Part shown: piece after piece, positions 8,579 through 57,316 of the stretch
How positions within the stretch are numbered: position 1 is the first letter of the stretch
How the letters are laid out: each line of letters begins with the position of its first letter
From: Octopus vulgaris
Lineage: Eukaryota
NCBI GenBank assembly: GCA_951406725.2
Contig: OX597817.1
Location: 94,364,001 to 94,428,000 of the forward strand
Reading direction: 5' to 3'
DNA: 64,000 nt
Program-made: the position numbers and the translations under genes
The notes under the pieces: generated by a model
The model's database searches: none
Seen by the model: the letters and a program-made list of their open reading frames with translations, nothing else
Told to the model about the DNA's origin: nothing

Positions 8579-10330
8579 ACAGAGCAGCCTCGGTTCTCGA
8601 CCATAATCTGCTCTGAAAGTCTGTTCTAAAACAGAATTGCTCAAGAACCGAATCATTTTTTCCCATTACAATTGACGTAAAAGAGATTAATTCGTTTCCA
8701 AACACCAGATGAATGCTCAGTTACATGATTACACTACATATTTTAGTATAAAACGTGTATTCAAACTGTAAATAACACACAAAAGCGTGTTATTTCTTAG
8801 AAGGGGAGTCCCCTTCTATAAAAACTACTGGTAACTGTTTTTCGGGGGTTTCTTCCCTTCTCTGTCTCTTTGGCTCAGGAACATCTTTTTCTGAGGTTTC
8901 TTTTCTTTTTTCTTTCAGTAAAAACCTGTCCAATATTAGTTGTTTTTGCCTGCATTGTAAAGGTTTTCTAAAATGAGACATGACATTTGCCATTGAAAAG
9001 ATTTACTGTTCTATTTGCTATCACTGTTTCAGGGTAATATTTTCCCACAAAACTTTGCACATCATCCCAATTGGCACAAATTTCTTTCATTAAAGAATTT
9101 GGAACATCCTCCTTTCCTTCTTCCTCCGCCTCAGAAGACATTTCCTCGGCTAAAGTTTTGAAGGTGTACGAGCTCTTCGGTGGTAAGCGCAGCACGGTGG
9201 TCTTCCAACAGTTCTTCAATATCTTCACTGTCGATATCCAACCCCATAGTTTCTCCCATAGAGACAATATCATCAACAATAGCAATTTCCTCGACAGCAA
9301 CAGTACTTGTAGCTGTCTCAACACCCACCCCTAAAGTCTCGTTCTGGTACAGTCTGGCCAACTTTCCTGCATGCTGAATTCATGGTTCTGTAACTCACTT
9401 GGTTCCATAAGATTAATACAATTCAGGATATTGAAATGATTTTTCCAAATTTCTCTGAGAATTAACTGAGTGTCATTAGTGACTTGAAAACACTTTCGAA
9501 ACAGGACTTTTGTGTAAAGTTTCTTAAAGTTTGCAACGACCTGTTGGCCCATCGGTTGTATTAGAGGAGTTGAATTAGGTGGCAGGCATTTGACCTAAAT
9601 AAAATTAAATTCTTCAACTAAGTCATCTTCCAAACCTGGAGGGTGAGGGAGGGCATTGCCTAACACGAGAAGGCATTTTAGTGGCAAGTTTTTTTCTTGC
9701 AGATTTTTTTTAACACTCAGGGCAAAAACTTCATGAATCAACTCAATAAGAAATTGTCTGGTTACCCAAGCCTCCGTATTAGCCCACCACATAACAGGCA
9801 ATTTACTTTTCATAACATTGTTTCTTTTGAAAACCTTCGGATTATCGGAATGGTAAACAAGCAATAGATTGACCTTGAAATAGCCACATGCGTTGCCGCA
9901 TAGCAAAAGAGTGAGTCTATCTTTCATTGGTTTGCGCCCTGGCAACACTTTCTCCTCCTTAGTAATATAGGGCCTATTTGGCGTTCGTTTCCAAAACAAT
10001 TCTGTTTCATCCCCATTAAACACCTGTTGGGGGAGATAACCTCCCTCCTTTATCAAGTCACTAAACTCAGTCACAAATTTCTCAGCCACTTCCTTGTTTG
10101 AACTCGCCGTTTCTCCATGCCTAAGTACATTGTGTATTTAACTTTTCTGCTTAAATTTCTCGAGCCAGCTTCTTCTAGCTTTTAATTCAAAAGTATCACT
10201 TTCAGCACTTGTACCAGAGTTTACTTTAAATTTATAATGCTTTCTCACAGATAAATGCTTCACGGATGCTGTCACCAGCTAACTGTTTCTCATTTGTAAA
10301 ATTAAGCAATAACTTTTCCACTTCGAGTAT
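8579..10330 (-). mobile_element. Tigger/pogo (TIGD1-like) DNA transposon remnant, 5' truncated
   Basis: CENP-B HTH end FKASRSWLEKF, HGE.AS, NGDETELFWK, KDRLTLLLC.NA.G, LVLGNALPHP, QPMGQQV.ANFK, C-terminal RQKQ..LDRF. TIR-like CAGAGCAGCCTCGGTTCTCGA near 8580. Confidence 0.88.
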
Positions 10331-10398
10331 CTTTGGTCGGGTGAGTTATGTGGCACTATGTCCTGTTTGTAAGAAATTATTTTTAATTCTTACTTGCA

Positions 10399-10475
10399 TT
10401 CACCTGATGGAAACTTTTTTGCATGAGCTAACACTTTTGTTTAGTAAAGAACACGTCTGAAACAGCTGTAGTGAA
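10399..10475 (+). ncRNA. Type I hammerhead ribozyme motif with long helix II (A9G core change)
   Basis: UUCAC-CUGAUGG-[48 nt imperfect stem-loop: UUUUUUGC/GUAAAGAA, CUAAC/GUUUAG]-GAAA-CAGCUG-UA-GUGAA. Confidence 0.7.
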
Positions 10476-10701
10476 CCGCAAACCTATCTATATTATTATT
10501 TATTCATCACCTAACTCGGAGTCTGTAGCCGAAGTGAAATACGTGCAGATTGTGTAACCCGGTTACAAATCCGTGTTTACTTCAGTAAGTACGTATATGT
10601 CAATATACATTGTCGGTACACAGGTGCTCTGTCCTCGACTGTACCTTGGTGCTTTTACTAGTTAAATACCTGATTCCTTCGAATCATAACAATATATATA
10701 T

Positions 10702-13699
10702 CAGTGCTTTTCAACCTTTTTGCTGAAGCGGAACTCCAAGGAAACATTCCACTGGCTCGAGGAACCCCTGTGCAATAATTTAATTATCTTATGCAAAAAA
10801 CAGCATTTAATTAATGAAATTAAAATACTCATGTTCAGATTTATTTACAATAAAAACACAAACTGTAAAAAAATTGTCACGTACATATGCAATTTTATTC
10901 TTACATCTACAGTTATTATTAAAACATGTATTAAAAAGACTTTAGTTTGAATAGATTACATTTATTCTCATCAAAAACTCAATGAAATTCTTGAGCCTGG
11001 TGTTTCTTGCACAACTCTTTAAGATTGGGTCGTGTTTTTGATAGATACACATGAAGTTCATCTTCCACAGACAGCAATTGTGCTCGCTTCTTGTGCTTGA
11101 TAGTTGTTAGGGCTGAAAATCCAAATTCACACAAGTAGGAGGTTGAAAAGTGCACAAGAAGTCGCAGCGCTTTCTGGGAAATTGCAGGATATTCCTTTTC
11201 AACTAGCAACCAAAATGCATTCAGGTTAAGCTCAGAATGCTTCAACTTTAATGTTCTGTCATTTAAAAAATTGGCAAGTTCTTCTTCTGTTAAAGTGAAC
11301 TGTTCTTCAAATGGCTCAAATTCCACAAATGGATTTCTAATCCAGTCATACTGGTCAACAGATATCGATGGAAAATATTTGTCAAGATTTGTTAACAAAG
11401 TGTGCAAATGGTTCAAAATCAGTAGCGCAATTTCTTGACAATTCCTTTTAAAAACACTTGGAAACATTTCCAAATTTCCTGCAGCCATGCGTTTCTTTCA
11501 TATTGTCAATTTCTTCTGAAAAGCATTTATTTTGTCAGTAGAAGACCAAAATCTTTCGTTCCTGCCCTGCATGCCATTGTTCAAGAGGTTTAGCTCATGA
11601 AATATATCGGCAAGATATGCTAACTTGGAACACCAATGGTTATCACTCAAACATTCTACAAAGTCTTTCAGGTTTTCTTGCAAACAAAAGGTCAATAACT
11701 CCTCTTAATTCGTAAAAACGAGACAATACTTTTTCCCTTGACAACAATCGTATTTCTGTGTGCTGGATTAAGGTGGAATGGCCTGCTTCCATACCCACAC
11801 AACGTTTCGCAAACTGTCGACATTTAAGTGGCCTCATCTTGATGTAATTAACTATTATCACTACCATATCAAATCCAGATTTTAGTTCAGGTCCAAGAGT
11901 TTTAGCAACTAGTGCTTCTCTATGAATGAAACAATGAATATGGATAATATTTGGATTTTGTTTTTGTGCGATTGGGACAAAGCCTTTAAGACATCCTATC
12001 ATTGCAGGGGCACCATCTGTACAAATACCAACACAGTCTTTCCAGTTCAATCCACAATACTCTAAATATGAATTCGAAACATTCAAATACATCTTGTCCT
12101 TTTCTTGTTTCTGGCAACTCTTTGCAACACAGGAAGTCTTCTACAATAGCTTCATCATTAATAAAACGAACAAATACAAGGAGCTGTGCTTTACCAGTGA
12201 TGTCTGTACTCTCATCAACTTGAAGTGCAAACAACTTATGTTTCAGTATTTTTGACTTAATATTGCACTCAATGTCTCCTGATATGTCTTGAATGCGCCT
12301 ACTTATTATGTTGTCAGAAAGTGGAATTTTATTTAGCTCTGATACAGCATCCTCTCCAAACATTATCCTCACTATTTCCTGGCATGCAGGTAAAATTACA
12401 GTTTCAGCGATGGTATGAGATTTCATTTTTCTTGCAACTATCTCCGCCACAGCATAACTTGCTTCTTGTCCTTTGTCACTCAACTTGCACATTTTGGCAA
12501 ACATAGAAACTTGCCTTTTATTAAATGCCAATTCTTTTTTAAAATATTGTTCATTTTTGCCTGACAACTCTGGATGTTTAGTTGTTAAGTGTTGTTTCAG
12601 TTTGGCTGGTGCCATAGCACTATTAGCCAGCTTCTCCCCACAAACAGTACACAAAGGTGAAGGGCAGTCTGGGTTTCCAGTCCAAGTAAATCCCAGAGCT
12701 ATGTAGTTTTCACAATATTGACGAACTTTTAGTTGCAGGTTAATTCCATCATGTCTTGGTAATTTCGAAGAGGCAGCATCACTGGCAGTGGCTGCAGTTT
12801 CAACAGACTGCCTCAGACCCTGTCTATCTTCATCTGTATCTAACTTACGTTTTTTCAGAAATCTATCCATACTTGTAAGGCTGTAAGCAGAATTGTATAT
12901 ATATAAAAGCAAACCTAATAGTGGCAGGACAAAATGATCTTTTAAGTGTAGCGTGTTTAATGATGTAAAATTTAGCTTTTTTATTAATGTTTTTTTTTTA
13001 GTAATAGGTATTTCATTATACTTAAACAATATGCATATAATAATAAAATAGATTTTCGGATTTGAATTTAAAATGTCGTGTATTTGTTCATTGTTCTAAT
13101 TTAGAAATTTGTAAGGAATTAATATTTATGCATATTTACATATCTTATTAGTATCAGTTTCCCTATTTCTTATTTTTTCCTACATATGTAATTCAACTCT
13201 CTTTCGAATTTTTTAATCTTAGCATTTCACCAAATATTAATAGATGTCATACAAGAAAATTTTTTTACAAAAACGCCTTTTAAAAAGCTAAAGATATTTT
13301 AAGAGGCGGATTAACAACACCTAAATGTCTTACGCAGTTAAAATGTTTCTTCCAAATATAGTCACTCGTATTTTACAAAAGAAACTAAACCATCATCTAA
13401 GCTAGCATGCAACTCGTAGATGTGCACGTACATGTACACACCAAGGATTAGGGTCATCTACGCTGGCGTGTAACTCGTAGTTGTACATGTCGTAGGCCTG
13501 CATATACACACCAAGGATCAGGGTCATCTACGCTGGCGTGAAAATCGTAGATGTACACATAGGCCTAACGTGTACACACATATCTGCACAGGAGAATTAA
13601 AAATTACTGTCGACTTTAGCATTTATGTAACTTCTTGCGGAACCCCTGGACTGTACTGGTGGAACCCTAAGGCCGCGGAACCCTGGTTGAAAACCACTG
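10702..13699 (-). mobile_element. Full-length hAT transposon, Buster/Charlie/SPIN group
   Basis: TIRs CAGTG(C/G)TTTTCAACC (14/15 match). 8 bp TSD ATATATAT/GTTTATAT with central TA. Repeated subterminal GGAACCC motifs; ~70 bp tandem repeat at ~13440-13555. Confidence 0.93.
10979..12870 (-). pseudogene. Buster-type hAT transposase pseudogene (BED finger, DDE, hATC); a few frameshifts
   Basis: MDRFLKKRK start; CTVCGEKL..SAM.P.KL..HL..KH BED finger; ALQVDESTD; CTDGAPAM.G; HCFIHREAL; KLAYLADIF; FSTSYLCEFGFS; ends HQAQEFH*. Split across four ORFs. Confidence 0.92.
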
Positions 13700-29012: not shown

Positions 29013-32000
29013 TATTCTACGTTGAGAAATTTAGAATTTTGCTCAATGGCAACAACAAACAGTTTCGAGGTAGTTTCAGTCGTCGATGAGAGAGGTGGAG
29101 AGACGGAGGAGTGTCTTGCTACAAAAATGGAGAGGGTGACAGTTCTTCGCCTGTTGGCATGACAAGCAAGCAGGCAAAACAAGATAATCATCCTAATCAC
29201 AAACAACAACTCCAACACCACCACCATCACCACATCTGCCACTACCATTACGAACAACAACAACAAAAGCAACTGTAGCAGCAACAACAGCAACGCAGAG
29301 ACAACAACAACAACTGAAGAGCTTTGACAGCAAAGACAAATAAGTAGTAGAGCTACGATATAAATTATTTCCTCTCCGTTAGCAAGTAGCTTGGCTACTT
29401 CAGTCAACGATATGAAGATCACCACAAACAATAGCGTCGCTTTGGCTCCGACTAACACTAACTACAATAGGAACAACACTAGCAGCAAAACAATATAATC
29501 AACACCAACAATAACAGTAACGATAAAAACAACTCCTTTGCAGGAGTTACAAGACTGCCGAGTAAATCTTCCTTGAATGAATTTATGCGTACCTGAATGA
29601 ATCAGATAGAATCTGATGAATCCTCAATAGAGGGCATAGGAAAACCAAGCTTGCTATCCCTTCAGCTTTGATGGAGAAGACGGCCAGAAGGACCATCGTA
29701 TACAAATGTGTGTCGCTAAAGACGAGGAAAATGCCACACATCCAAGTAGAAAAATGCTTGAAGAGCATTTGGACTGACATTGATTTCCTCACACGTGTGA
29801 GACAATATGGTTCTGAGGAAACATGAGGATCTTCTTCTCCTTCCCACATACCTTGGGCAGCGGGCGGTGAAAGTTAAAATATCTGATTTGCTACCAGAAT
29901 TAGACATTTGGTAGTTGGTTGCGTGCGCTGTGGTCAAAGGCCAGGATTCGCTTCTAGAAATTAAAAAATATCGGAAGAAAAATGGTCCAGAATCGAGTGG
30001 GAGATTTTGATCCAGGTAAAACCGGAATCCCTGGACAAGGTCCCTGATGTTATCGAGCTTCACAACGGAGCACAACTCCAAGTCGTGTTCGAAGACAGAA
30101 AGCCAAGGTTCTACACTCTTGGATCTAACGCCCATTTGAAGGTCCTCTGCCCACAGCAACAACAGAATGGAGCTCGAGAAACGACGACTCTGGTACCACA
30201 ACCACCACAAGAAGGCCAAAAGCTGCAACAATAATCAATACAGCAACAGCTATTAAAACATCTTCAACAGCAGAATCCTGCCACTACAATGGCACCAACA
30301 ACTGTAGCCGTAGAAACAAGTAGCGCCCGACCATCCCTACAGGCGGGCGACTTAGAGACACCATGTACTCCCGACACGTGCGATTCAGAAGCCTTATCTT
30401 GCAACGAGAAGGAATTGAATCCCCCAAAAAGGATTTGTGTTGGGGAAAAGCGGTGAAGTAGTTCAGAAAAAGGTTGTCCTAAGCTACACTAACAACACTC
30501 AAATCCCAACATCAAAAGCAATGTACACTCATTCAACCACAACCACAAATACAAAAAGCACCAAACAAACAAGCACTCGAAGAGAAACATCAATCACAAG
30601 AACAACTCGTACAACTTACTAGAGAACCCGAATGCCTCATCAACTTCACAGTCGTTCGCAAGAGCAACAGCTGATGCAGGAAGTAGGGATAACCACAAAT
30701 ATTCATATAAAAAGAGTAGGGTTCGACGAACGTCTGTCGAAAACTCCCCGTGACAGACAGCTGATAAAAACTGATACAAACACTTACCTAGAACTTTAAA
30801 AAAATACTCAAAAGACACTGGACCTTTTAGGCTAAAGCCGGATAAGAGGAATTTAGGAAGGCCCTTGAGGCTGCTAAATCAGCCGACCCTCTCAAAATCC
30901 AAGGTAAGTGACTTTCCATTTTGTTTCTCCGATAAACAGTCGTTTTCAGAGTGGGGTGTGTGAATGTTCGTGGCCTGGGGTCAGCTTGGAAGCAAGGTCA
31001 CTTGCTAAATGACCTCAGGTCGCTCGATTTACATGTTGCTGCAATTAGCGAGACAAGGATTTCTAATGCACAAGCATTAGAGCCCATTTTCTATGACTAT
31101 GAGATATTCTCATCATGTGGTCTGTCGTGAGCGGGCGGCAGGGTAGCAGTGCAATCCCGAAAATCCTCTGATCTGGAAGTAAAAGCAATGTTCAGGGAAC
31201 CGGGCGGCAGGTTGGTGGTCCTAGATGTTAATGGTAGTGAAGGTGACACCCTTAGACTGGTGGTCGTCTATGCCCCTACAAGATCTGGAAGGCCAGAATG
31301 CTTCAGGCGTCTAGAATCATTACTGGGAACGTCTCGAAGTTTAGTACTAGTAAGGGACTGAAATGGGATTTTTGACGCACAGAAGGACTGTGTTGGACTA
31401 GTACACAGAAGAAGGGGATGCAAAAGCCTCAAAAATCTACTCAGAGACTTCCAATTGTCTAACAGGTATCAGCTGGATTTCCCTGATGTGCCAGTATAGA
31501 CATGGATTAACCACAATGGGTCATCTGGATAATATCTAGATCGAGTATTTGTTCAGTCAGAGGATAGGGATAGTGTAGGTTGTCCACAATTTAAATTGGT
31601 TGGCTACACAGACCACAAGTTTGTGATCTGCACAGTCAAGTTAGATAGAACCCGTGGACAGGGACCCGGTTACTGGAAGTTAAACGCGTCCTTTCCGGTT
31701 CGTAAAGATTAAAGGGACTGGATTAATGAACTAGTTAAGCGGTAGTTGACGGAGGGCAATGGTCAACAACTGGTGGTGGGCTACCCTGAAGAGGGCGATT
31801 AGAGCAGAATCGATAGCGTTTAGGAATAGATTAGACAGTGAACTAATTAGCAAATTAGAAGAGGCGATTAAAAAGGGCATTGCGGTCGATGTGTTAGCGG
31901 CGAGAATGACTCTTAACCATTTCTTCGAAGCCAAACACAAAGGTTGCGTTGTTAGAGCTAAGGCCCGTGCGCTCAAGCAGGAAGGAACTAAAGCTGTCCG

Positions 32001-34500
32001 ATGGGCCCGAACAGTGGAGATGCGACGTGGAAACAAAACCATGATCAGGTCTTTGACGGATCGAGATGGGCGCGTGCTACGCGACTCCGAGCAGACTCGC
32101 GCAGCTGTTTGGAGAGGGGGGTAAGTGGACAACATTAATGGACTTTAGTTCGTACCTGGACGGCTTGCCGCGGCTCTCGGCAGCTGACACGAGGTTATGT
32201 GAAAGGCCCATAACAGCCGCTGAAATTTGGGAGGTGATGAGCGATTGCAAAAGTCGCTGATCGCCCGGCTTAGATGGTCTGCCGTATGAATTCTATGTAT
32301 TCATGCCAGATTTGTTTGGCAACATCTTGCCAGACGTCTACTGCAAGTGCAAATAGAACAGGAGAATGCCTAGTACTGTTAGCATAGGTGTGGTGACACC
32401 GCCGAGGAAGGACACCGACAATGGGGACGCACGACAGAATTTTCGGCCCATAACTCTGTTAAACACAGAGTTTAATATTTAAGTCAAGGTGTTAGCGAGA
32501 AGGCTGGCGCTTGTCGTCGGTAGCCTGGTCGGAGAAGCACAAACGTGCGCAATCCCGAGCTGGTCTATCCACGTCAACCTCCACCTTATGTGATACATCA
32601 TAGAGAGGGCTGGGACCATAGTTGACATCGGGAGTGCTCTGATGAATTTGGATCAATCAAAAGCATTCGATAGTGTTGACCATCGCAATTTGGAAATTGT
32701 CCTGAAATTAAGCGGTTTCGGACCCATTTTCAGAGGCTGGATCGCTACAATGTTCAGTGGTTAAAGTACACGGCCACCTATCGGAGCCGTTTAGCATCGC
32801 ACGCTCGGTCCGTCAAGGCTTCCCGCTTTCGCCTCTTCTATACGTATCGGCACTCGAACCACTGTTTCGGAAGTTGGAACAGCTAAGAGGCAATCCTTTC
32901 GAACTGAGACAAGGAAGGGCAGTTTCGGTATACACGGACGTCGTCACCGTCATGGTGTCGGACGTTCTGAAGTGGAGACGGTCGGCACCATCCTAAAGGA
33001 ATATGAGTCGGTTGCAGGGGCTAAAATCAACGCCGACAAATTGGTGGGTTTGCGGTTGGGAAAGACGATGCCATCGGACGTCGTCGTCGGACTCGGGGTC
33101 TGGTTTGATCCTGACCTTCAGGTTGATAAGAACTGGGACGAGTTGGCGAACAGGGTGGCCAGCCTTACCCAGAAATGAGCCGAAAGAAAGGTCGAGCAGA
33201 TGTGGCGAATGCTTATATCGCCTCCGTTATCATTTATCGCCTGACCATCGTGCATTGTCCCGATTACTGCTTGACCAGGTTGGGGCGTCTGTTATTTAAA
33301 TACTTGTGGTAGGAATGAGTTCCAATGTGCAGACGGTCGGCCTGTTGCCAATATCCTATAAGTGGGGGATTAGGTATGCTGTGGCTCCTAATGAGCAAAC
33401 ACGCTCTTAGGTTACGTCACCTGCAACGATTTCTGGACGGTAAGCGTGTGTGGGCTCCGTTTGTGAGGCTCGTCTTTCCGCTGCTCGTCTCCTTGATGGA
33501 GCTGCAGTTCTGGGTGAAGGTTAGACCAAGACTGGGCACCTGATGCTTAGAATGTCATCGGGCGCTTACAAACGTCTACCAGTCGAGCAATGGGATCGGT
33601 GGATGTTCCACTTCAGAAATTTTTAGAGGATTATTGACGGGGAAGTGCAACGCGTTCTAGGAGAGACTCTGGGCGCCGACGAGAACGAACTGGCTAGTCT
33701 GTTCCGGAGGCTTTCCCTTCAGGAATTATCCTGGATAATTTCCCGATGTCCTTGACCTAGCAATACTACCAGTTCGAGATAAACTCTACAGGCACTGATG
33801 TGCTGTCAGACGGACTTGTCCGAGGTGCGCGCAGAGTGACAAAACCGTTCTGCACACCCTCATTCATTGTCCGAGTATTGCTGACTTGTGGGGTTATGTT
33901 GAACAGCTGTTGTCACGTATGGGACGGATCCGTCTGTCGGCCGAGTCTGTAGTGATGATCGCACTGTCGCTAGCCTTCAATTAGACAGGCAAGGTAGTGT
34001 TCCTTTGCCTGGTGGCTATGGCGAAAGAGTTTGTTTTGTGGACAAGGCTGAACGGCATGAAGACATTCCTCTTTTGTAGCGCTCTCGTTGATTTCTTCAA
34101 GTTTCACTTGAAAGGGAAATTGAGAGCGGAGAGAGAAGTGATGTCCTCGAATGAGTTTATTGAAAGGTGAGTTACGAAAATGGCAAGAATGGATGGTACC
34201 TGTGAGTCGGAGAGAAGGAATTGGAGTGGGCTATTGCTCCTAGGATTTGAGGGAAATCTCGGACAGTAGGTTTCTTCGATTATCCCTAGAGGCCTTTCTG
34301 TATCAGGAGGGCCACATCTCTACCATCCTCCCCACTTTTTTACCTTACCTTTTGTATGTTATGCCTATGTCCCTTCTTTTTCAGTGCATACCGTGTATAC
34401 TTACTTTTTTTATCATTTCCTTTTATGTAAACCCCCCACACTTTATGTCTGTCTCTGTATTGTTCCCCTCATTTCACCCTTGTGGCAAATAAATGAAATC
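29013..34500 (+). mobile_element. Full-length decayed Tx1/L1-clade LINE (ORF1 plus APE-RT ORF2), flanked by (ATT)n
   Basis: ORF1 remnant with a knuckle-like H....CP near 30130. ORF2 from ~30940: NVRGL, AISET, VYAP, YLDRVF, TDHK, GPGYWKLN, SPGLDGLPYEFY, FRPITLLN, LDQSKAFDSVDH, VRQG.PLSPLLY, GGLG, CPRC...H...C. AATAAA at the 3' end. Confidence 0.9.
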
Positions 34501-40556: not shown

Positions 40557-41076
40557 AAGAATGCACATATATATATAGACGTTTTAGATGTGTGCGTGTG
40601 TGCGGGCATAAGAATGAACATATATATATAGACGATTTTACTTAGCATTTTTTCTTTTTTTTTTGGGTGGGGACATATGTATATTCATTTTTTGTATATG
40701 CGTGTGTATGTATGCGTATATAAATATGTGCGGGTATGTACATATGGGCATGTGTGTGTATGAGTGCATAGGGGTATGTCCGTATATGAACATGGTTTTA
40801 AGATTTTTATACTTCCTTATGTTTTTTTCTGTTACCTTTAACCATGGTTTTTCTTGTGCTTGTGCGTATATAGACGTGTGTATGAACTTTTACGGTACGC
40901 ATGTGTGTGTATATGAGTTTGTATATATATGCGTATATATTTGGCGAAAATGCGAGTGAAGATGTGTACGTTTTCATAGTGACGTATAAGTATGCACGTG
41001 GGTTCGCGAGCAGAATTATAACACAGTAATTTCCCTTTATATAACGGTATTTTTTCATAGCGTTTTTCAGATGCCC

Positions 41077-41133
41077 AGATTACCGAATGGTGTTGTGGAT
41101 TTCCACTTCGGCATCTGAAACTCAGTTTTATCT
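41077..41133 (+). ncRNA. Decayed copy of the pLTR hammerhead (two small deletions)
   Basis: Aligns to 44142-44204 but lacks GAGA after CCGAA and AG in helix III. Confidence 0.6.
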
Positions 41134-41342
41134 TGACTATTGAGTAAATGTAACATATTATTTTATAGATAAATTTCCTCTATTTACATAATATTGAGGT
41201 CTCTTTCTTTCTTTTGTTATCTTACCGTTTTTGCCAATAAGTTACCTCCCGGACGACGCTATTCTTCACTAAGAGCTAATACAGCTTTTTTGGATTATCG
41301 CCTAACATCGGCTGAGGACTCTTACACACAGGAGAATTTAAT

Positions 41343-43459
41343 ATGGACGCATATTACATAGATTATTCTATGAAAAATATACCAATCCCATCAAGGGAAC
41401 TTTATTCAAAGAAACTTTTAGAGAAAATTACTGATCTAATTAAGCGCATGAGATGGAAAGCTTTCTTTTTTAATACAGAAGTGGACACCATGGAAAATAC
41501 TTTCTATCGTATAAAATCTAAAAAAATTCCCTCCCAAGATTAAAGGCTTGGAAGATTTCGAAGCGGACCTACTGAAAATTATGAATAAAATAAAATTTCG
41601 TAAGTCTTTTAACAATTTCCAACATAAATTGAAAAAAGATATAAAACATATAAAAAGCTCCAAGAAAAAAGCACTTTTTTTGGATAATACCAAGAACTTA
41701 TACCTGATAGATAACAGCATATATACACAACAGCATCATTAATAATTACACTAAGGCTAGGCCAGACATATAATGACATTAATAAAGAAGCTAGCGTTAT
41801 CGCCGCTAAACTTAAATTAGATAAAAAAATAGAAGTCCTTCCCCAAAAAGAGGCCTTTATTACAATTAAATACCAGAAAGAGAACTTCCTTTCCAACCCT
41901 AAATGTAGGCTTATCAACCCAGCTAAGTCAGAACTTGAGATTATTAGTAAAGAAATTTTAGATAAAATAAATACGAAAATTAAGACCGCTACTAGGCTAG
42001 TACAATGGTCCAATAGTATAGAAGTCGTAGACTGGTTTAAAGTCATTAAGAATAAGAAAAAAGCGAGGTTTACACAATTCGATATTGTTGATTTTTATGC
42101 CTCTATCTCTAAAGAACTGCTAGATAAAGCCCTCGTCTTCGCTAGCGATTTCATAGAAATCAGTACAAATGATAAGGACATAATCTTCCATGCTAGAAAG
42201 ACCTTACTTTTCAGTGAGAACGCAAAGTGGGTCAAAAATACCGACACAGATGGTGCTTTCGATGTGAGCATGGGGTCATATGCTGGAGCAGGCATTTGCG
42301 ATCTTATTGGATTTTTTCTCCTAGATACTTTAGGTAAGACATTTCCTGGCGTATATTTCGCCATCTACAAAGATGATGCCCTCGCTTTAACCGCTAATAC
42401 AAATGGACCAGCACAGGATCGTTTTAGGAAGGATATTATCCAATTAATGAAATACTTCGGACTTAGTATAACTATAGATACTAACCTAACAGTTGTCAAT
42501 TTCCTAGACGTTTCTTTAGATCTAAATAAGAATATTTATAAGCCTTATAAGGAAGCCCAATGATAGACTTAGTTATATTAATGTAGGTTCATGCCATCCC
42601 CCTATAGTATTCAAAAATTTAGTTAAAAATATTAGTAAGAGAATTTGTAGCCTCTCCTCCGATAAGGACATTTTTAATAGCGTTGCCCCAGTTTATAATA
42701 AGGCTTTAAAAGATAGTGGTTTTAGCGAAAAAGTAAAATATACACCTGTTACTAGCCCAACAGTAAAGAAGAGGAAAAATAGAAATAGGAAGATCAACTG
42801 GTTTACACCCTCTTACTCACCCGAGGTGGCCTTCAATATAGGTAAATATTACTTAACACTGATAGGTAGACATTTTCCAGTTAACCATACTTATAGGAAA
42901 CTCTTCAATAAACACAATTTAAAAATTAGTTTTAGTTCTACTACCAATTTTAAAAATATAATCACACATAACACACAAAAACCACAACAAGAAAACAGCT
43001 GTTCATGCAGGAATAAAAAAATTGTGCCCGCTAAATGGAGCTTGCATGTCCGAGACCATCATCTATGAAGCTACCGTGGACTCTATAATCACTAAAGACA
43101 CTGTTTCGACGAAGAAATACGTGGGCCTTACAGAGGGTAATTTCAAGGCCAGGTTCAATAACCACACCTTGAGTTTTAGGCACTGGAAGAAAAGAAATGC
43201 GACAAAATTATCTAATCATATTTGGTCTTTAAAAGATAAAGGTGTCGATTATAACATCCATTGGAAGATTTTGGCCAAATGTAAGCCCTACACCAACGGC
43301 AGCGGAAGGTGCGGTCTATGCGACATGGAGAGATGGCTTATCTGGAAAAGCAGCTTAGACCCTACTACATGTCTAAACTCAAGGACAGAACTTTTCGGAT
43401 CATGCCCACATGTGACTAAATTTTTGTTACGTTTTTGGTCCCCTAAAGAAAACAGATAG
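41343..43459 (+). pseudogene. PLE reverse transcriptase / GIY-YIG endonuclease pseudogene (Naiad-like)
   Basis: YSMKNIPIP...LIKRMRWKAFFF, CRLINPAKS, QFDIVDFY.SI, MGSY.GA.ICDL.G, IYKDDAL, NFLDVSLDL, CSCR...CPLNG.C, IIY...KYVGLTEG.FK.RF.NH, CGLC..E...LN.R.EL...CPH. Several stops and frameshifts. Clade assignment is from recalled motif style, not a search. Confidence 0.88.
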
Positions 43460-44141
43460 AAATTGCTTTCTATATTATGTCCCAAAAAGTTTTTTTATCT
43501 CATTATACCTTTTATTATTTCATATATATTTTTTTATTTTCACACAATTTTTTCTGTACTTTTCTATCCTGCATTTTTTACTGTGCCTATATAGATGTGT
43601 ATATAGATTCATTTGTACACGTGTGAATATGTATGAGTGGGCAGTTTTAGATGTGTGCGTGTGTGCGGGCATAAGAATGCACATATATATATAGACGTTT
43701 TTACTTAGTATTTTTTCTTTTTTTTTTGGGGGGGGGGACATATGTATATTCATTTTTTGTATATGCGTGTGTATGTATGCGTATATAAATATGTGCGGGT
43801 ATGTACATATGGGCGTGTGTGTGTATGAGTGCATAGGGGTATGTCCGTATATGAATGTGGTTTTAAGATTTTTATACTTCCTTATGTTTTTTTCTGTTAC
43901 CTTTAACCATGGTTTTTCTTGTGCTTGTGCGTATATAGACGTATGTATGAACTTTTACGGTACGCATGTGTGTGTATATGAGTTTGTATATATATGCGTA
44001 TATAGTTGGCGAAAAATGCGAGTGAAAATGTGTACGTTTTCATAGTGACGTATAAGTACGCACGTGGGTCGCGAGCAGAATTATAACACAGTAATTTCCC
44101 TTTATATAACGGTATTTTTTCATACCGTTTTTCAGATGGCC

Positions 44142-44204
44142 AGATAACCGAAGAGATGGTGTTGTTGATTTCCACTTCGGCATCTGAAACTCAGAGTTTT
44201 ATCT
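44142..44204 (+). ncRNA. Type I hammerhead motif in the PLE pLTR, CCGAAGA core variant
   Basis: AGAUAA-CCGAAGA-GAUG-[22 nt]-CAUC-u-GAAA-CUC-a-GAG-UU-UUAUCU. Confidence 0.72.
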
Positions 44205-44479
44205 TGACTATTGAGTAAATGTAACATATTATTTTATTGATAAATGTCCTCTATTTACATAATATTGAGGTCTCTTTCTTTCTTTTGTTATCTTACCGTT
44301 TTTGCCAATAATTAAGGGTTTAGCAACAAGTTGCTTCACCACATACCGAAAATTTTAGAAATACCAGCCAAAAGATTGCTATTTCTTTTTTCTACAAAAT
44401 ATGTCTCCGCAGATAACAATATTTGTAACTCACATAGGCAAAAAGAAAGAAAATAATGAAATCAAACAGTCTTCGATTA

Positions 44480-44537
44480 ATTATGGACGCGCTTCTGGAT
44501 TAGAATTATAAAAATTCCTTTCCGTCATCAACATAAT
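44480..44537 (-). ncRNA. F1 hammerhead motif (UUGAUGA core; GAAA mutated to GAAG)
   Basis: Minus: AUUAUG-UUGAUGA-CGGA...UCCA-GAAG-CGCG-UC-CAUAAU. Confidence 0.65.
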
Positions 44538-44715
44538 ATTTCGAGAATTATAAATTTGAAAATTATAAATTTGAAAATGCTAAGAAAACTACTTGGTAAA
44601 ATTTGTTAATATAAGTTTGGATATGCTGATTAGCTTGTGTATGTTCTGATGGCGCATGCTCAGAAATACAAGAGGTAAGTTTTCCTAGCGTTTTCAAATT
44701 TATAATTCTCGAAAT

Positions 44716-44773
44716 ATTATGTTGATGACAGAAATGAATTTTTATAATTCTGATCCAGAAACGCGTCCATAAT
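44716..44773 (+). ncRNA. F1 hammerhead motif (UUGAUGA core)
   Basis: AUUAUG-UUGAUGA-[29 nt stem-loop]-GAAA-CGCG-UC-CAUAAU; 6 bp helix I, palindromic ACGCGU helix III, GUC triplet. Confidence 0.8.
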
Positions 44774-45083
44774 TAATCGAAGACTGTTTGATTTCATTAT
44801 TTTCCGCCTTTTTGCCTATGTGAGTTCCAAATATTGTTATCTGTGGAGACATATTTTGTAGAAAAAAGAAATAGCGGTCTTTTGGCTGCTATTTCTAAAA
44901 TGTTCGGTATGTGGTGAAGCAACTTGTTACTAAACCCTTAATAATTGTTATAATTATATATATATATATAAAAACTTCTTTATATAGGGTTATACCGAAT
45001 ATGGTTCTTTTCCATACCGAAAACTACTTGGTAAAATTTGTTAATTTATTAAAGTAATAATTTTTTACTCTATATCTGTAATG

Positions 45084-45330: not shown

Positions 45331-45438
45331 GTTAATCCAAACAAGAAAACACAGAAAAAAAGAGAAAAAAAAAACACAGCAACGCAGGACGTGGAACAAT
45401 TAAAGTATTATTGACGCTCAGGAAAGAAGGGAAGGAGG

Positions 45439-45474
45439 GTTTAACGTTTCGAGCGGAGGATCTTCGTCGGAAAC
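45439..45474 (-). ncRNA. Minimal hammerhead motif, CCGACGA core variant, in a (TA)n-anchored PLE-like terminal fragment (~45329-45900)
   Basis: Minus: GUUU-CCGACGA-a-GAUC-cucc-GCUC-GAAA-CG-UU-AAAC; palindromic AACGUU. Confidence 0.65.
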
Positions 45475-45903
45475 AAGGAGAAGGAAAGATCCCAAGACGG
45501 GAAGACAGAGGAAAAAATATTTGAGCTGGTGGTGCTCAAGAGATCACATGTTGAAAGAACAGAAGTTGAGGTAGTCAAATCCTGGTTTTTAAAAGCAAGA
45601 GATTTTCAAAAAAGGAATGCGTGTGTGTGTTAGTGTGTGTGCAAGGATGACAAGTGTGTTTGTGCTTGCGTGTGTATGTGTGTGTGTATTTTTGGTGAAT
45701 AATAAGCAATGACAAAGTCAGCTGTCATAAGGCACTCCTTTATGACTACTAGCTGTTTGTATCAAGCCAGGTCAAAGCCAGGTCAAAAAACAAAGGGCTA
45801 TATGTATCATGTGTGTGTGTTGTTTGTAGTGTGTGTGTGTGTGCGTGTGTGTGTTCGTGTGTGTATGCGTAGAGTGTGGGTGTGTGGCGAGTAACTGCTT
45901 AAC

Positions 45904-48115: not shown

Positions 48116-48208
<93 letters not shown>
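45904..48208. repeat. ~2.3 kb degenerate (TG)/(TATG)/(TA) low-complexity array
   Basis: Directly visible; source of many 100-370 aa artefact ORFs. Confidence 0.97.
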
Positions 48209-48210
<2 letters not shown>

Positions 48211-48431
48211 TTACAGATATAGAGTAAAAAATTATTAATTTAATAAATTAACAAATTTTACCAAGTGGTTTTCGGTATGGAAAAGAACCATATTCGGTAC
48301 AACCCTATATAAAGAAGTTTCTTTTTATATATAATTATAACAATAATTAAGGGTTTAGCAACAAGTTGCTTCACCACATACCGAAAATTTTAGAAATAGC
48401 AGCCAAAAGACCGCTATTTCTTTTTTCTACA
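48209..48431 (-). mobile_element. F1 fragment flanked by (TA)n, truncated before the ribozyme
   Basis: Reverse complement of ~44857-45084. Strand is given in the ribozyme sense. Confidence 0.85.
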
Positions 48432-48475
48432 ATATATATATATATAGTTCCCTTTCGTCGCGACCTGGTGGTTAC

Positions 48476-48518
48476 CGCCCGTTGACAAGGGACAAAAATC
48501 CCGAAACTAGTCTGAGCG
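48476..48518 (+). ncRNA. Minimal type I hammerhead with U3-A8 covariant core
   Basis: CGCCCG-UUGACAA-GGGA-caaaaa-UCCC-GAAA-CUAG-UC-UGAGCG; helix I has one mismatch and one G-U pair. Confidence 0.78.
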
Positions 48519-48989
48519 TATCACTCAGGCTTGCGAGGAGGGGATGGCCTCCCTTTGCAAATACTTCAAGGGCACTGAAATTGTGTCTAAAGCCAGCTGG
48601 AGACGACGATCTCTTGGGGGTATAAAGCTACAGTAACACCCCCTCCCCTATGTGGTTAGCCATGTCAAGATGGCTTCTATACTTTACATACATATATATA
48701 TATATATATTGATTGCATTAGCCATTCAGTAACACGCAAAGACCGTCAACTTCACTAAACATTTAATTGTAATATGGCGACAATATTTTCTCCGCACAAA
48801 ACTGCGACCTGTTCATTATCAAAAAAATTCGACAGCATCTCTCTAGTCAATGAATATGTGCACATAGTGCTATCACATTAGTTTTAGCATACTTGCTATG
48901 TAAGTATATCTCTCACACACACACACACTCACACACACACACACACACACGCATGTAGGTCTTTATAACCTAGCAAAAATATTCTAAAA

Positions 48990-53096: not shown

Positions 53097-53244
53097 TAGT
53101 AAGTTAAATGAGAACTCCATTACGTAATAAATTGTAGGCATAAAGGCAGGCTCAGCTTATCCAATGTCCAGCGTTTAACCCAATACCTCGGGCCGACCAA
53201 AGCCTTTTGAGTTGATTTGAATTTGATAGACGGAAACTGAAAGA

Positions 53245-53294
<50 letters not shown>

Positions 53295-53301
53295 GTCTGT
53301 C

Positions 53302-53352
<51 letters not shown>

Positions 53353-54065
53353 CAGTTGTTTTTAAACTATGGAAAACAACTTGCGTGGATGAAGAAACTA
53401 ACTCCTTACAACGCTGGGATAAACAAGCCAATTTCTTTAATAACTACGAAACTCAGTTTAACATAGAAAACGCATCGGATAACCCCTTCCTGAAGAAAAA
53501 TAAACCAAAAACAGACACAGAAATGACCCCACGTGCATTAAACACAAACCACAGACGGTCTAGGGGACGTAACTCGACCTTCTTTAACTCTCTTACTCCA
53601 CCAAATAACTATCAAACAACTATAGATTATTCAACCCACAGGAGTAAATCTTCAAGGTATCCCACATACAAAACAAAGATTTCATCGGAACTTCCAGACT
53701 AACCTAAGTTTTGGTGAACCAGTTCCTACCAGGAAGAACTTACCTCCGATACTTTACCCCCAACACAGCCACTTCAAGCAGTCAACGAGACAAAACATGA
53801 CTAGACAACATAACCTCTCCCTCCAACCATATCACAATATTCAAAATCAAACAAACCCAAACTACATTAGCCACAGACGATATAACAACCCTCAGTACAA
53901 CCATAATCCAGTACACTACACAACCACTCCACCACAAACATACTACCATAGACACACTTTACACCCAACTTTCCCTCAGCAAACCAAACAAAATACAGGC
54001 CTTCCACTACAATCCACATACTACAACCATTTTTTAGACGCAAACCAGAGAAACAGAGATGTGAA

Positions 54066-56362
54066 ATGGAAATAAATAAACAAGTCCAACCGAAAATAAT
54101 CAACCTGACAAAGAAAATCCTGAGTTCTATACAAATCAAAACCCTAGCAAGAGGTTTAAAATTTACCCTTACCCCCACAGATCGAACCCAAATGAAATTA
54201 AGGACAATACTTTGGACTTCTGCCGTAAATTACGCCTCACAGAAGCTCTTTACAACTACACCAGTGAAGATGATTCAATAGTGAAAAACAAAAGTGAGTA
54301 CCATCCTACAAAAGGTAGAAATAAAGCACTTGATGTTTTCTGTGATCACATAACTTGTTTTTCTTACAATACCATTCCAAAACAACATATCAAATCCAAC
54401 CTTAATTTAAATGAATGGAAAGACCTTGTCGAGCTAAAAAATGATATAAACCCCACTATTAAAGAAGCCGACAAAGGAAGTGCGGTAGTATTGATGGATA
54501 CAGAGTACTACAAAAATTTAATACTTTCCATGTTGGAAAATAATACTTACTATGAGAAACTAACATATTACAACCCACAGAAAACACTGAAAAACTTATC
54601 CTCCTTACTCCAAATTTATGGAAACGGTCTGACAACACATGAAATAGACTATTTATCCAATTTCAAATAAAGTCCTAGTCTATTCTACGGATTACCCAAA
54701 ATACATAAAAATCCACTCATTTGTGAAGCCTGCAAAGTCTCTACAAGCCTATGCATTAATGTCCCTCCCCCTACAGACCCCAAACTCAGACCCATCATAG
54801 CTGGCCCTTCTTGTGAAACCCACCGTTTGAGCAACTTCCTCGACATATTACTCAAACCTCTTTTAAAATATGTGAAAAGCTTTATCAGGGATGACCTAGA
54901 CATGCTGAACCACCTCCCGAAGACAGTAAAGGACGGAACACTACTGGTATCTTTCGACGTGGTGAATCTATACACCAATATCCCACACGACTATGGTATA
55001 GAATCAATCACATTTTGGCTAGAAAAATACCCAGAAGAGATCCCAGGACGAATTAACCACTATTTTATAATTGAAGCACTGAAATTCGTCCTGCTGAACA
55101 ATCACTTCTTGTTCGATACTACTTACTATCGACAAAAATGCGGTATTGCAATGGGAACCAGAGCTGCTCCAGTGATTGCAAACCTCGTAATGGGTTACCA
55201 CGAACTCAAGTTATACCAATCATCACTAGAAAAATTTGGCGCCTCTTTTAATTGTTATTTAAAGGAGAACTGGAAGAGATATTTAGATGATTGCTTCATA
55301 CTTTGGAAAGACAGCATGGATCAACTCCTTGATTTCAAAAGAATGCTCAACAACATACACAGCAATATACAATTCACTATGGAATACAACAGTAAGCAAC
55401 TCCCTTTTCTAGACATCTTAATTAGAATAGTTATCAACCACATAGAAACAGACATCTTTTATAAACCCACAGATTCTAAACAATACCTATTATTTAACTC
55501 CTGCCACCCCAAACACATAAAAATCAGCATACTCTTTAACCTAGCAAAAAGAATCTGCACCATAGTTTCCGATACTTATACTCGAGAACATAGACTCCTT
55601 CAACTTAAATCTACATTAACTAAAAGACATTACCCAATCTCATTAGTAAGTGAAGGCATCAAAAGAGCTAAGGAAATAGACATACAAATGTTAAGGAAAA
55701 CTAGCCGAAATACTAAACAAGACTTAAAAATACTCCCGTACATTTTCACACATAACCCCAGAAACAACGAAGCCTTCAACATCATCACCCAAAACCTTCC
55801 CATCCTCACAGCAGACAAAACAATGAACGAAATTTTAAGCTCATATAAAATTATAAAAAGCAAAAAGCAACCGAAGTCACTGAAAAAAATATTAACCAGC
55901 GCTAGACTGTATCCACTAACAACAGAGCCAAAAGTGACAAAATGTGGACGTTCTAACTGTGGAACACGCCCCCACCTTCTGGAGGGTTCAGAATTCCAAT
56001 TCAAACAAGGAGAAATATTTAAGATCAAATCAAATTCCACCTGCGCCTCAGCAAATGTAATCTATGTCATGACATGCATAGGATGTGGTAAACTCTATAT
56101 TGGACAAACAGGAATTTCGCTCCGTCAAAGAATCACTATTCACAAAGAGCAAATCCGTCACCCACAATACAGACAGTTAAAGGTGAGTGAACATATAGAA
56201 AGGTGTGCCAGGAATCTTAATCCCAATTTCCAAATATTTCCCTTTTACCAATGTTCACAGAACACCACAATGCAACAAAGGTTGAATAAAGAGGCATTTT
56301 TCATCAATAAATTTCTCCCCCAACTAAATATGAACACACAACTCAATACAGAACACCACTAA
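54066..56362 (+). pseudogene. PLE RT / GIY-YIG polyprotein, nearly intact (one frameshift near 54180, one TAA at 54668)
   Basis: IINL...L.RGLKF, FCRKLRL, IKEADKGSAVV, FYGLPKIHK, LRPIIA, SFDVVNLYTNIP, GIAMGT..AP, WKRYLDD, LPFLDI, CGRSNCGT linker, VIYVMTC..C...YIGQT, LRQR...H. ORFs 54212..54670 and 54827..56362 share a frame. Confidence 0.92.
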
Positions 56363-56531
56363 CTCTTCAATTGAAACCACTAACCCCTATACACGTCCGA
56401 CACCACTCAGATTTCTAAATCCAGAACTACTTACCTCCCTTACAAATAATCCAGAACTACTTACCTCCCTTACAAATAATATTTTTTCTCAGGAACTATT
56501 AGACTTGACACCGTGTATTAGCCGGTGCTTC

Positions 56532-56568
56532 AAACGATGAAAAGATTTGCGTAAACCATGGTCCGTTT
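56532..56568 (+). ncRNA. Decayed hammerhead remnant in the Neptune-like 3' region
   Basis: AAACG-(CUG missing)AUGA-...-UAAA-CCAUGG-UC-CGUUU; helix I and palindromic helix III retained, core broken. Confidence 0.4.
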
Positions 56569-56780
56569 TGTTCTCTTACTTTATTATCATCTTATAATCA
56601 TCTTATAACAATGACTTTTTTGACTCGTATTACTACCTCAGTCAATCTAAATGTATATATTTGTCGTTACCTGTCATAAATAGCCTTTTTTTTATTTGCA
56701 ATGTGCATTTTCGTTGATTTTTCATATTTTACCCTTACATTTCCACGTGTATTTTCTATTTTCTTTTTGTAACATATTTC

Positions 56781-56864
<84 letters not shown>

Positions 56865-56865
<1 letters not shown>

Positions 56866-57316
56866 TAACAATAATTAAGGGTTTAGCAACAAGTTGCTTC
56901 ACCACATACCGAAAATTTTAGAAATAGCAGCCACAGATAAGAATATTTGTAACTCGCATAGGCAAAAAGAATAAAAATAATGAAATCACACAGTCTTCGA
57001 TTAATTATGGACGCGTTTCCGGATTAGAATTATAAAAATTCATTTTCGTCATCAACATAATATTTCGAGAATTATAAATCTGAAAATGCTAGGAAAACTT
57101 ACTCCTTGCATTTCTGACCAAGCGCCATCAAAACATACAAAATTTAATCAGCATATCCACATTTATATAGACCAGTGATTTCGTATGCCCCTCCAAGTTT
57201 ACCATGTGCGTCACAAGATAGTACTGCAGAAAAAGATCGGCAGTTTTGTTATCGGGGAGTGAAATAATCATTACAGATATAGGGTAAAAAATTATTAATT
57301 TAATAAATTAACAAAT
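56865..57316 (-). mobile_element. F1 copy running through the unit junction (permuted or tandem)
   Basis: Contains the F1 body, then ~100 nt not seen in other copies, then CATTACAGATATAG..., which starts the 48209 copy. Confidence 0.85.
57004..57061 (-). ncRNA. F1 hammerhead motif (UUGAUGA core)
   Basis: Minus: AUUAUG-UUGAUGA-CGAA...UCCG-GAAA-CGCG-UC-CAUAAU. Confidence 0.78.

Follow-up and report, generated by a model that had tools for sequence, protein, structure and literature searches.

A candidate retrozyme-like repeat of Octopus vulgaris carrying a hammerhead fold with U3 opposite G8 or A8

Introduction

A short segment between two TA tracts of Octopus vulgaris DNA raises three questions: whether it holds a hammerhead ribozyme, what kind of element carries it, and what the U-A pair at its core positions 3 and 8 says about its function. 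The segment lies in a 64-kb window, the whole stretch of DNA analysed here, which is AT-rich and microsatellite-rich animal DNA full of transposon remains. An earlier note had read it as a retrozyme-sized, TA-flanked unit with a functional hammerhead variant, arguing that decay would seldom turn the usual C3-G8 into U3-A8, a compensatory double change.

The literature offers several points of comparison. In canonical type I hammerheads of metazoans, helix III is short and palindromic, and the ribozymes act as dimers (PMC4209133). Natural U3-A8 covariation, including cases in phages, was reported as rare single examples by Perreault et al. (2011, PMC3088659), where in vitro activity of U3-A8 is credited to earlier work, and about 1,300 minimal motifs with U3-A8 were found by way of Cercyon, a Penelope-like element of Schistosoma mansoni (Cervera and de la Pena 2014, PMC4209133). 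These minimal hammerheads of Penelope-like elements (PLEs) have a stem II of 7-8 bp, a short stem I and an unpaired base between positions 9 and 10.1 (PMC4209133). PMC7151607 cites a hammerhead variant from a halophile that combines U3 and G8 with an insertion. Non-LTR retrozymes, with examples from mussels, are units of 150-450 bp with GC under 45-50%, and PLEs are candidate mobilisers for them (Cervera and de la Pena 2020, PMC7229834). Retrozymes have been linked to Penelope terminal repeats, with a monomer share per family ranging from 0 to 1, and among predicted frog retrozyme dimers one of nine cleaved and eight did not (Li, Clavereau and Pollet 2026, bioRxiv 10.64898/2026.07.22.740005). 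PLEs use (TA)n targets and leave inverted truncated copies (PMC8557442), and a PLE protein was reported to cut AT-rich DNA and extend both strands, with protein-assisted ribozyme cleavage (PMC11167929).

Results

A type I hammerhead motif at the tip of a long hairpin

The motif elements listed in the earlier note (UUGACAA, a 4-bp helix II, GAAA, the palindrome ACUAGU, a GUC triplet and the short hairpin sequences) were all found in place (Table 1), as was the relatively GC-rich island between TA tracts, with a GC content of 0.50-0.51 that was equalled or exceeded in 91 of 3188 sampled 240-nt windows. In hammerhead numbering, U3 is 48482, A8 is 48487 and C17 is 48512. The core letters U4 G5 A6, N7-A9, G12 A13 A14, A15.1-U16.1 and H17 are all present in the window copy, and positions 3 and 8 form the Watson-Crick pair U3-A8. 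The 4 bp of stem II follow directly after A9, with no extra base. Stem I is missing from the earlier note. Its 6 proximal bp continue into a long hairpin, 48449-48481 paired with 48513-48544, which bears the ribozyme at its tip and is interrupted twice, at 48473-48475 by an internal loop and at 48479/48515 by a C-A mismatch.

Table 1. Positions of the unit, its hammerhead motif and neighbouring elements in the window.
Feature	Position	Strand	Basis or remark
One copy of a high-copy non-coding repeat (the unit)	48448-48686	+	239 nt; matching contigs in X1, X3
Left (TA)n tract	48433-48446	.	sequence
Right TA-rich tract	48687-48709	.	TA tract proper 48693-48708
Stem I 5' arm and extension	48449-48481	+	folds; alignment to Rfam HH9 stem I and bulge
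UUGACAA core strand, U3 U4 G5 A6 C7 A8 A9	48482-48488	+	sequence; G8 in most relatives
Stem II GGGA/UCCC, loop CAAAAA	48489-48502	+	4 bp, G10.1-C11.1 at base; pair probability 0.7-0.99
G12 A13 A14, palindrome ACUAGU and C17	48503-48512	+	sequence; self-duplex energy; ACCGGU palindrome in relatives
GAAA	48503-48506	+	sequence
Palindrome ACUAGU, A15.1 (48506) to U16.1 (48511)	48506-48511	+	sequence
GUC triplet	48510-48512	+	C17 = 48512
Predicted cut site	between 48512 and 48513	+	hammerhead numbering
Stem I / long hairpin 3' arm	48513-48560	+	folds; 48545-48560 is the pairing partner of the 5' extension in longer relatives
CUGAG / CUCAG	48512 / 48524 (starts)	+	shares bases with stem I
3' half, two small hairpins (48616-48643; 48658-48675)	48561-48686	+	folds; deeper coverage than ribozyme half
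AGCCAU / AUGGCU	48658 / 48670 (starts)	+	small 3'-half hairpin
Truncated copy of a different hammerhead-bearing repeat	48207-48437	-	head-to-head with the 48448-48686 element, not part of the unit
Second-family hammerhead-like motif	44717-44772	+	one of the three motifs has GAAG for GAAA
Second-family hammerhead-like motif	44480-44538	-
Second-family hammerhead-like motif	57000-57060	-
Penelope-like element	40763-44300		two 474-nt terminal repeats, 96% identical; broken frame 41715-43459
Penelope-like element	53241-56780		563-aa stretch with RVT_1 and GIY-YIG

A search of 701 nt gave a local match to Rfam Hammerhead_HH9 (RF02275) with a score of 28.5 bits and an E value of 6.1e-5 (gathering score 52), which spans the whole model, with its bulged stem I, CAAAAA loop 2, GAAAC and GUC. 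The letters of loop 2 and of the stem I bulge agree with the HH9 consensus, and loop 2 is variable among relatives of the unit. The Rfam scan at gathering thresholds returned no match at all, and HH9 was absent among the 125 matches of a whole-window scan to E 0.05; those 125 were to microRNA and snoRNA models, all below their own thresholds, and we take them to be simple-repeat matches. A hammerhead descriptor, composed post hoc with the motif already known, gave two matches in the window in its loose form, against 0.43 per shuffled window, and none of 30 shuffled windows passed its strict form. The stretch 48460-48535 folds with a z score of -2.5 (2 of 200 shuffles as good) and the whole element with -1.65 (14 of 200). 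Folding was not above shuffles on the minus strand (z -1.29) or for the 3' half at 48561-48686 (z -0.93), and not clearly above shuffles for the circular fold of the unit (z -1.6; 15 of 200).

That a hairpin-rich repeat might resemble a hammerhead by chance would fit the sub-gathering score, the missing HH9 match in the whole-window scan, the two core letters off consensus and the rate at which the loose descriptor matches shuffled windows. An HH9 E value of 6e-5 with matching bulge and loop letters, the strict descriptor result and the paired changes seen in a diverged relative (see below) argue the other way, and chance is very unlikely. The E value marks the fold as more than chance in spite of the sub-gathering score, and we regard the type I hammerhead fold at 48482-48512, at the tip of a long hairpin, as real.

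A high-copy repeat with a fixed 3' end

Of the 24 sequencing runs listed in a screen for the words of the unit, 20 contained part of them and one contained half or more; none was listed as an RNA source, which has no bearing on expression. Family statistics come from the four of these 24 runs that were matched to the unit at 80% likeness: X1 and X3, DNA by guess and under two organism labels, and X6 and X20, RNA by guess. The matching contigs number 1084 in X1, 1234 in X3, 3 in X6 and 34 in X20, and the 1084 and 1234 distinct contigs thus identify a high-copy repeat; the depths given below are summed over contigs and are not copy numbers. Within the 64-kb window no second copy of the unit was found, and the window copy is a monomer. 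Exact-pattern scans gave no match in prokaryote genomes and viral contigs, and none in metagenome contigs, where the pattern excluded the loop-2 variants of about half the family.

The 3' end of the unit at 48686 was marked by an independent full-length contig (X6 record 24) and by a tandem joint. Because relatives end at this position and continue into other AT-rich DNA, the right TA-rich tract is probably target DNA. On the 5' side, ten X3 contigs extend about 14-16 nt further than 48448, starting after a TA run, and the pairing of their extension with 48545-48560 is predicted at -17.0 kcal/mol, a value equalled by 1 of 300 shuffles. Full copies would therefore be about 255 nt long and carry the ribozyme on the end of a single long hairpin, and the window copy appears slightly 5'-truncated, about 14-16 nt short of the longest relatives seen. 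Many contigs start inside the unit, the 3' half is several times deeper than the ribozyme half, and relatives retain the terminal AGCCAU/AUGGC stem with a different loop.

A TA run precedes the ten X3 contigs and X6 record 26, and AT-rich DNA lies on both sides of X6 record 24. TA flanks alone were rejected as evidence, as the window has 65 TA tracts with 6 gaps of 150-350 nt between them. The GC content of the unit (0.504-0.508) is at the published upper limit for retrozymes. ARAGORN reported 0 tRNA genes, and no match to Pol III A and B box patterns was found; a tRNA-derived SINE was rejected on these two results.

A LINE-type mobiliser that recognises the 3' hairpins, with the hammerhead merely trimming the 5' end of the RNA, would explain the fixed end at 48686, the variable 5' ends and the conserved terminal stem with its variable loop, all of which fit priming at an RNA 3' end, and LINEs have been named as possible retrozyme mobilisers (PMC7229834). 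However, the predicted cut falls within the unit, about 80 nt downstream of where full copies start, and hence is not what defines the 5' end, and no LINE tail match was found in the window. We consider such a mobiliser highly unlikely.

The sole head-to-tail joint runs from 48686 to 48532 and defines a 155-nt unit of the 3' part that lacks the ribozyme core. In X20 it forms a closed contig, but the joint was also found in the DNA run X1, and hence exists as DNA; as the core is absent too, the closed X20 contig was rejected as proof of a circular RNA. A head-to-tail joint of the full unit, from 3' end to 5' start, was not among the three joints listed, in contigs that are short and broken at TA tracts. 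A>G places number 13 in X20, several of them on one contig and five at single-contig depth, compared with one in each DNA run, a weak hint of possible A-to-I editing of plus-strand transcripts. Editing at position 8 was rejected as an established fact, as the share of G there is lower in X20 than in X1.

Neighbouring hammerhead-bearing repeats and Penelope-like elements

Together with the unit, the truncated repeat on its left is bordered by TA tracts outside both, and the two may be one compound insertion or two separate ones. A second repeat family in the window carries a minimal hammerhead-like motif, UUGAUGA ... GAAACGCGUC, with a U3·G8 wobble in all three copies that span the motif. Its copies are arranged head-to-head at 44306-44947 and in partial tandem at 56846-57316, and each cluster sits after a PLE. 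In the left PLE (40763-44300) the right terminal repeat has a hammerhead-like motif at 44148-44154 with C at position 4, and the left repeat has small deletions in its motif; the right PLE (53241-56780) has a decayed hammerhead-like motif near 56530-56575. Named relatives of a PLE protein in the window, at 45-50% identity, are from bivalves or bivalve-symbiont bins. The nearest RT/GIY-YIG frames end at 43459 and start at 53241, have terminal sequences of their own, and do not adjoin the unit. The unit resembled neither the terminal regions of either PLE in the window nor those of the neighbouring repeat (best E 0.8).

A further minimal hammerhead-like match on the minus strand at 45430-45475, with C at position 4 and the palindrome ACGU, may be chance (0.18 matches per shuffle). 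A Pfam Transposase_1 match identifies a mariner-type transposase in the window. The stretches at 1898-2773, 8968-13095 and 29700-33200 we take to be the mariner-type transposase, other DNA-transposon-like frames and a GC-rich LINE-like stretch, the labels other than the Pfam one being presumptive.

Another conceivable origin of the unit is as the pseudo-LTR or 3' end of an autonomous PLE outside the window, with the copies as its truncated insertions. PLE terminal repeats carry hammerheads, including U3-A8 forms, mostly as single truncated motifs (PMC4209133), many copies begin inside the unit, as seen from the rise in depth and the loose contig ends, and the head-to-head arrangement with another hammerhead repeat is like PLE insertion structures (PMC8557442). 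In contrast, the fold is canonical, with a 6-bp proximal stem I, a 4-bp stem II and nothing extra after A9, and not of the minimal PLE type; the longest copies, reached by few contigs, start right after a TA run and not from coding sequence; and neither PLE in the window matches the unit. A PLE terminus is an unlikely source.

Core positions 3 and 8 across the family

Position 3 has no variant at or above 5% in X1 and X3, so U3 is nearly fixed. At position 8, G accounts for 74% of summed depth in X1, and for 67% and 52% in X3 and X20, respectively; the single X6 contig has A. The family majority therefore lacks a Watson-Crick 3-8 pair and has a U3·G8 wobble instead. Among the remaining core positions, no change at or above 5% was found in X1 and X3 at U4, G5, A6, A9, G12, A13, A14, A15.1 or U16.1; N7, loop 2 and H17 vary at this level. 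The tallies of X1 and X3 are fully accounted for by the listed rows, bar one C>A each, and the statement of an invariant core is limited to these two runs, as X20 may have one unlisted T>C place. Core invariance may merely reflect recent spread from a few master copies. The two organism labels differ at position 17 (48512), the nucleotide where cleavage is predicted: U accounts for 86% of depth in X1 and for 3% in X3.

With U3 fixed and G8 in the majority, A8 is one G-to-A step at a CpG away from U3·G8, or the reverse. The argument in the earlier note from a rare double change, which decay would seldom make, therefore fails; its retrozyme-sized, TA-flanked unit with a hammerhead stands, and by contig matches this unit is a member of a repeat family. 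By the note's own criterion, a family consensus lacking the pairings, its reading is refuted for the Watson-Crick pair at 3-8 and not for stems I and II, whose pairings the consensus keeps. Both deamination products of the C7-G8 CpG are present, U7 at 11-14% and A8 at 26-33%. Only one of the ten CpGs in the window copy varies at or above 5% in X1 and X3, which argues that A8 is a mark of amplified copies and not of scattered decay.

In one X20 contig, which is in register, a G-C pair of stem II is replaced by A-U and the palindrome ACUAGU by ACCGGU, and the 8-contig consensus of a loose end in X1 (agreement 0.69) also has ACCGGU. Such paired changes would point to selection on the fold, a signal that is thin but real.

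The main rival explanation holds that the hammerhead is vestigial: C3-G8 would have decayed to U3·G8 in a master copy, the family would have spread in a SINE-like manner without cleavage, and A8 would be a CpG transition in an active sub-lineage. The U3·G8 majority and the presence of both CpG deamination products agree with this, as do the deeper 3' half and the sole tandem joint, which omits the core. In vitro insertion by a PLE was unimpaired with ribozyme mutants and proceeded without ribozyme cleavage (PMC11167929), and a mutational scan of a type III hammerhead found low activity for single and double core mutants, a G-C swap excepted (PMC9901934). Set against a fossil ribozyme are the paired changes in stem II and the palindrome by which a diverged relative keeps its fold (fully in one contig, partly in the noisy 8-contig consensus), the low variability at the other CpGs, and the U3·G8 state of the second family, which suggests that this state is tolerated. 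We regard a vestigial ribozyme in a family spreading without cutting as possible, if doubtful.

Private changes and predicted folding of the window copy

Three letters of the window copy, at 48513, 48540 and 48620, are nearly private to it. Position 48513, which is position 1.1 beside the predicted cut site, is U in the window copy and C in 99% of depth in both X1 and X3. The predicted stem I pair probability is 0.47 with this U and 0.96 with the family C, and that of a competing CUGAG/CUCAG hairpin is 0.33 with U and 0.00 with the family letter. The note had taken CTGAG/CTCAG for a further hairpin; its bases are those of stem I, hence it competes with stem I, and a functional extra hairpin was rejected since it is gone once the family letter is restored. 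In these models, the CUGAG/CUCAG hairpin is a by-product of U48513 that competes with the ribozyme. The function of the window copy is therefore doubtful, its ribozyme being probably impaired by the private C-to-U change.

In monomer folds the C15.2-G16.2 pair had a probability of 0.00, leaving stem III open in every form tried, and G5-A6-C7 paired with the GUC triplet at a probability of 0.43-0.93. With stem III unable to close and the core occupied by this pairing, a lone transcript is predicted to be largely inactive. The palindrome ACUAGU has a predicted self-duplex energy of -4.8 kcal/mol. From these predictions, the motif likely cuts itself weakly or in pairs.

Discussion

Several traits of non-LTR retrozymes recur here: the hammerhead is of the canonical type I and its short helix III is palindromic, the unit is non-coding, measures about 240-255 nt and exists in many copies, LTR-like features are absent, and PLEs lie in the same genome. 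The unit differs in its GC content of about 50%, in having U3 with G8 or A8, and in that no full-length tandem was seen in the short contigs. With the Cercyon-type minimal hammerheads it has in common U3-A8, a palindromic 15.2-16.2 region, mostly single dispersed motifs and a presumed action as dimers; unlike them it has a 4-bp stem II, nothing extra after A9, a long stem I with a bulge as partner of loop 2, no attached reading frame, and U3·G8 in most copies. From Rfam HH9 it is set apart by a score of 28.5 bits against a gathering score of 52, a stem III that is not closed, a variant core and membership in a repeat family. Perreault et al. (2011) described the same covaried core pair, which in the present family, with its U3·G8 majority, is the less common state. 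Literature searches turned up no description of this family, nor of any canonical hammerhead family of animals in which U3·G8 predominates. U3-A8 itself having been published in 2011 and 2014, what is new is modest: a U3 shared across the family, with G8 as well as A8 copies amplified. The locus has a hammerhead fold within a repeat family and is a candidate non-LTR retrozyme.

The reading towards which we lean is that the segment is a dispersed, 5'-shortened copy of a retrozyme-like non-autonomous element, moved into TA-rich DNA by Penelope-like enzymes, with a ribozyme predicted to be slow or to cut in pairs. Starting from the anatomy, the family, the split of U3 with G8 or A8 and the TA- or AT-rich flanks of several copies, the following course may be proposed. 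Copies would be transcribed by read-through, a route suggested by the negative searches for a tRNA head and Pol III boxes. The 5' half of the RNA would form a long hairpin capped by the ribozyme, and the core of a monomer would be mostly shut. Two copies might pair via the palindrome into a double hammerhead that cuts after C17 (48512), possibly yielding a unit-length linear or circular RNA. A Penelope-type endonuclease would then nick AT-rich DNA, and its reverse transcriptase would copy the RNA, often stopping early and so leaving 5'-truncated copies. A8 would have arisen in one step from the commoner U3·G8 wobble, or have been its source.

This retrozyme-like reading is favoured by the HH9 match, the core positions without change at or above 5% in X1 and X3, the paired changes in stem II and the palindrome, the pairing of the 5' extension, the gain in stem I probability with the family letter at 48513, the flanks of several copies and the PLEs in the same window. 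It also agrees with the published dimer action of type I hammerheads, the size and monomer shares of retrozymes and the cutting of AT-rich DNA by a PLE protein. Against it stand the low activity of core mutants in the type III scan, the eight of nine frog dimers that did not cleave, the circular fold not clearly above shuffles, the possibility that core invariance stems from recent spread, the lack of the core in the only tandem joint and of a full-unit joint among the three listed, the wobble in place of a Watson-Crick pair in most relatives, the core-blocking pairing in monomers, the absence of likeness to the termini of the two PLEs in the window, and the in vitro PLE insertion without cleavage mentioned above.

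A more far-reaching idea, tentative and unlikely, is that the family spread on a working canonical hammerhead with U3·G8 and gave rise to a large sub-lineage with a repaired U-A pair. Position 8 would then be mutable both ways, with CpG deamination turning G into A and reverse transcription of edited RNA, should it occur, turning A into G, and the family would preserve, as a living series, the intermediate step of a compensatory change in a catalytic core. If so, cleavage rate would be tuned against spread.

If neither core state cuts, the family would be an ordinary repeat with a fossil ribozyme. As one family in which many natural copies share a scaffold and differ in core state, U3·G8 or U3-A8, it is a usable natural test that may interest ribozyme and mobile-element specialists, and it bears on the natural viability of a wobble intermediate in a core compensatory change and on whether the hammerhead of an animal retroelement must cut for the element to spread.
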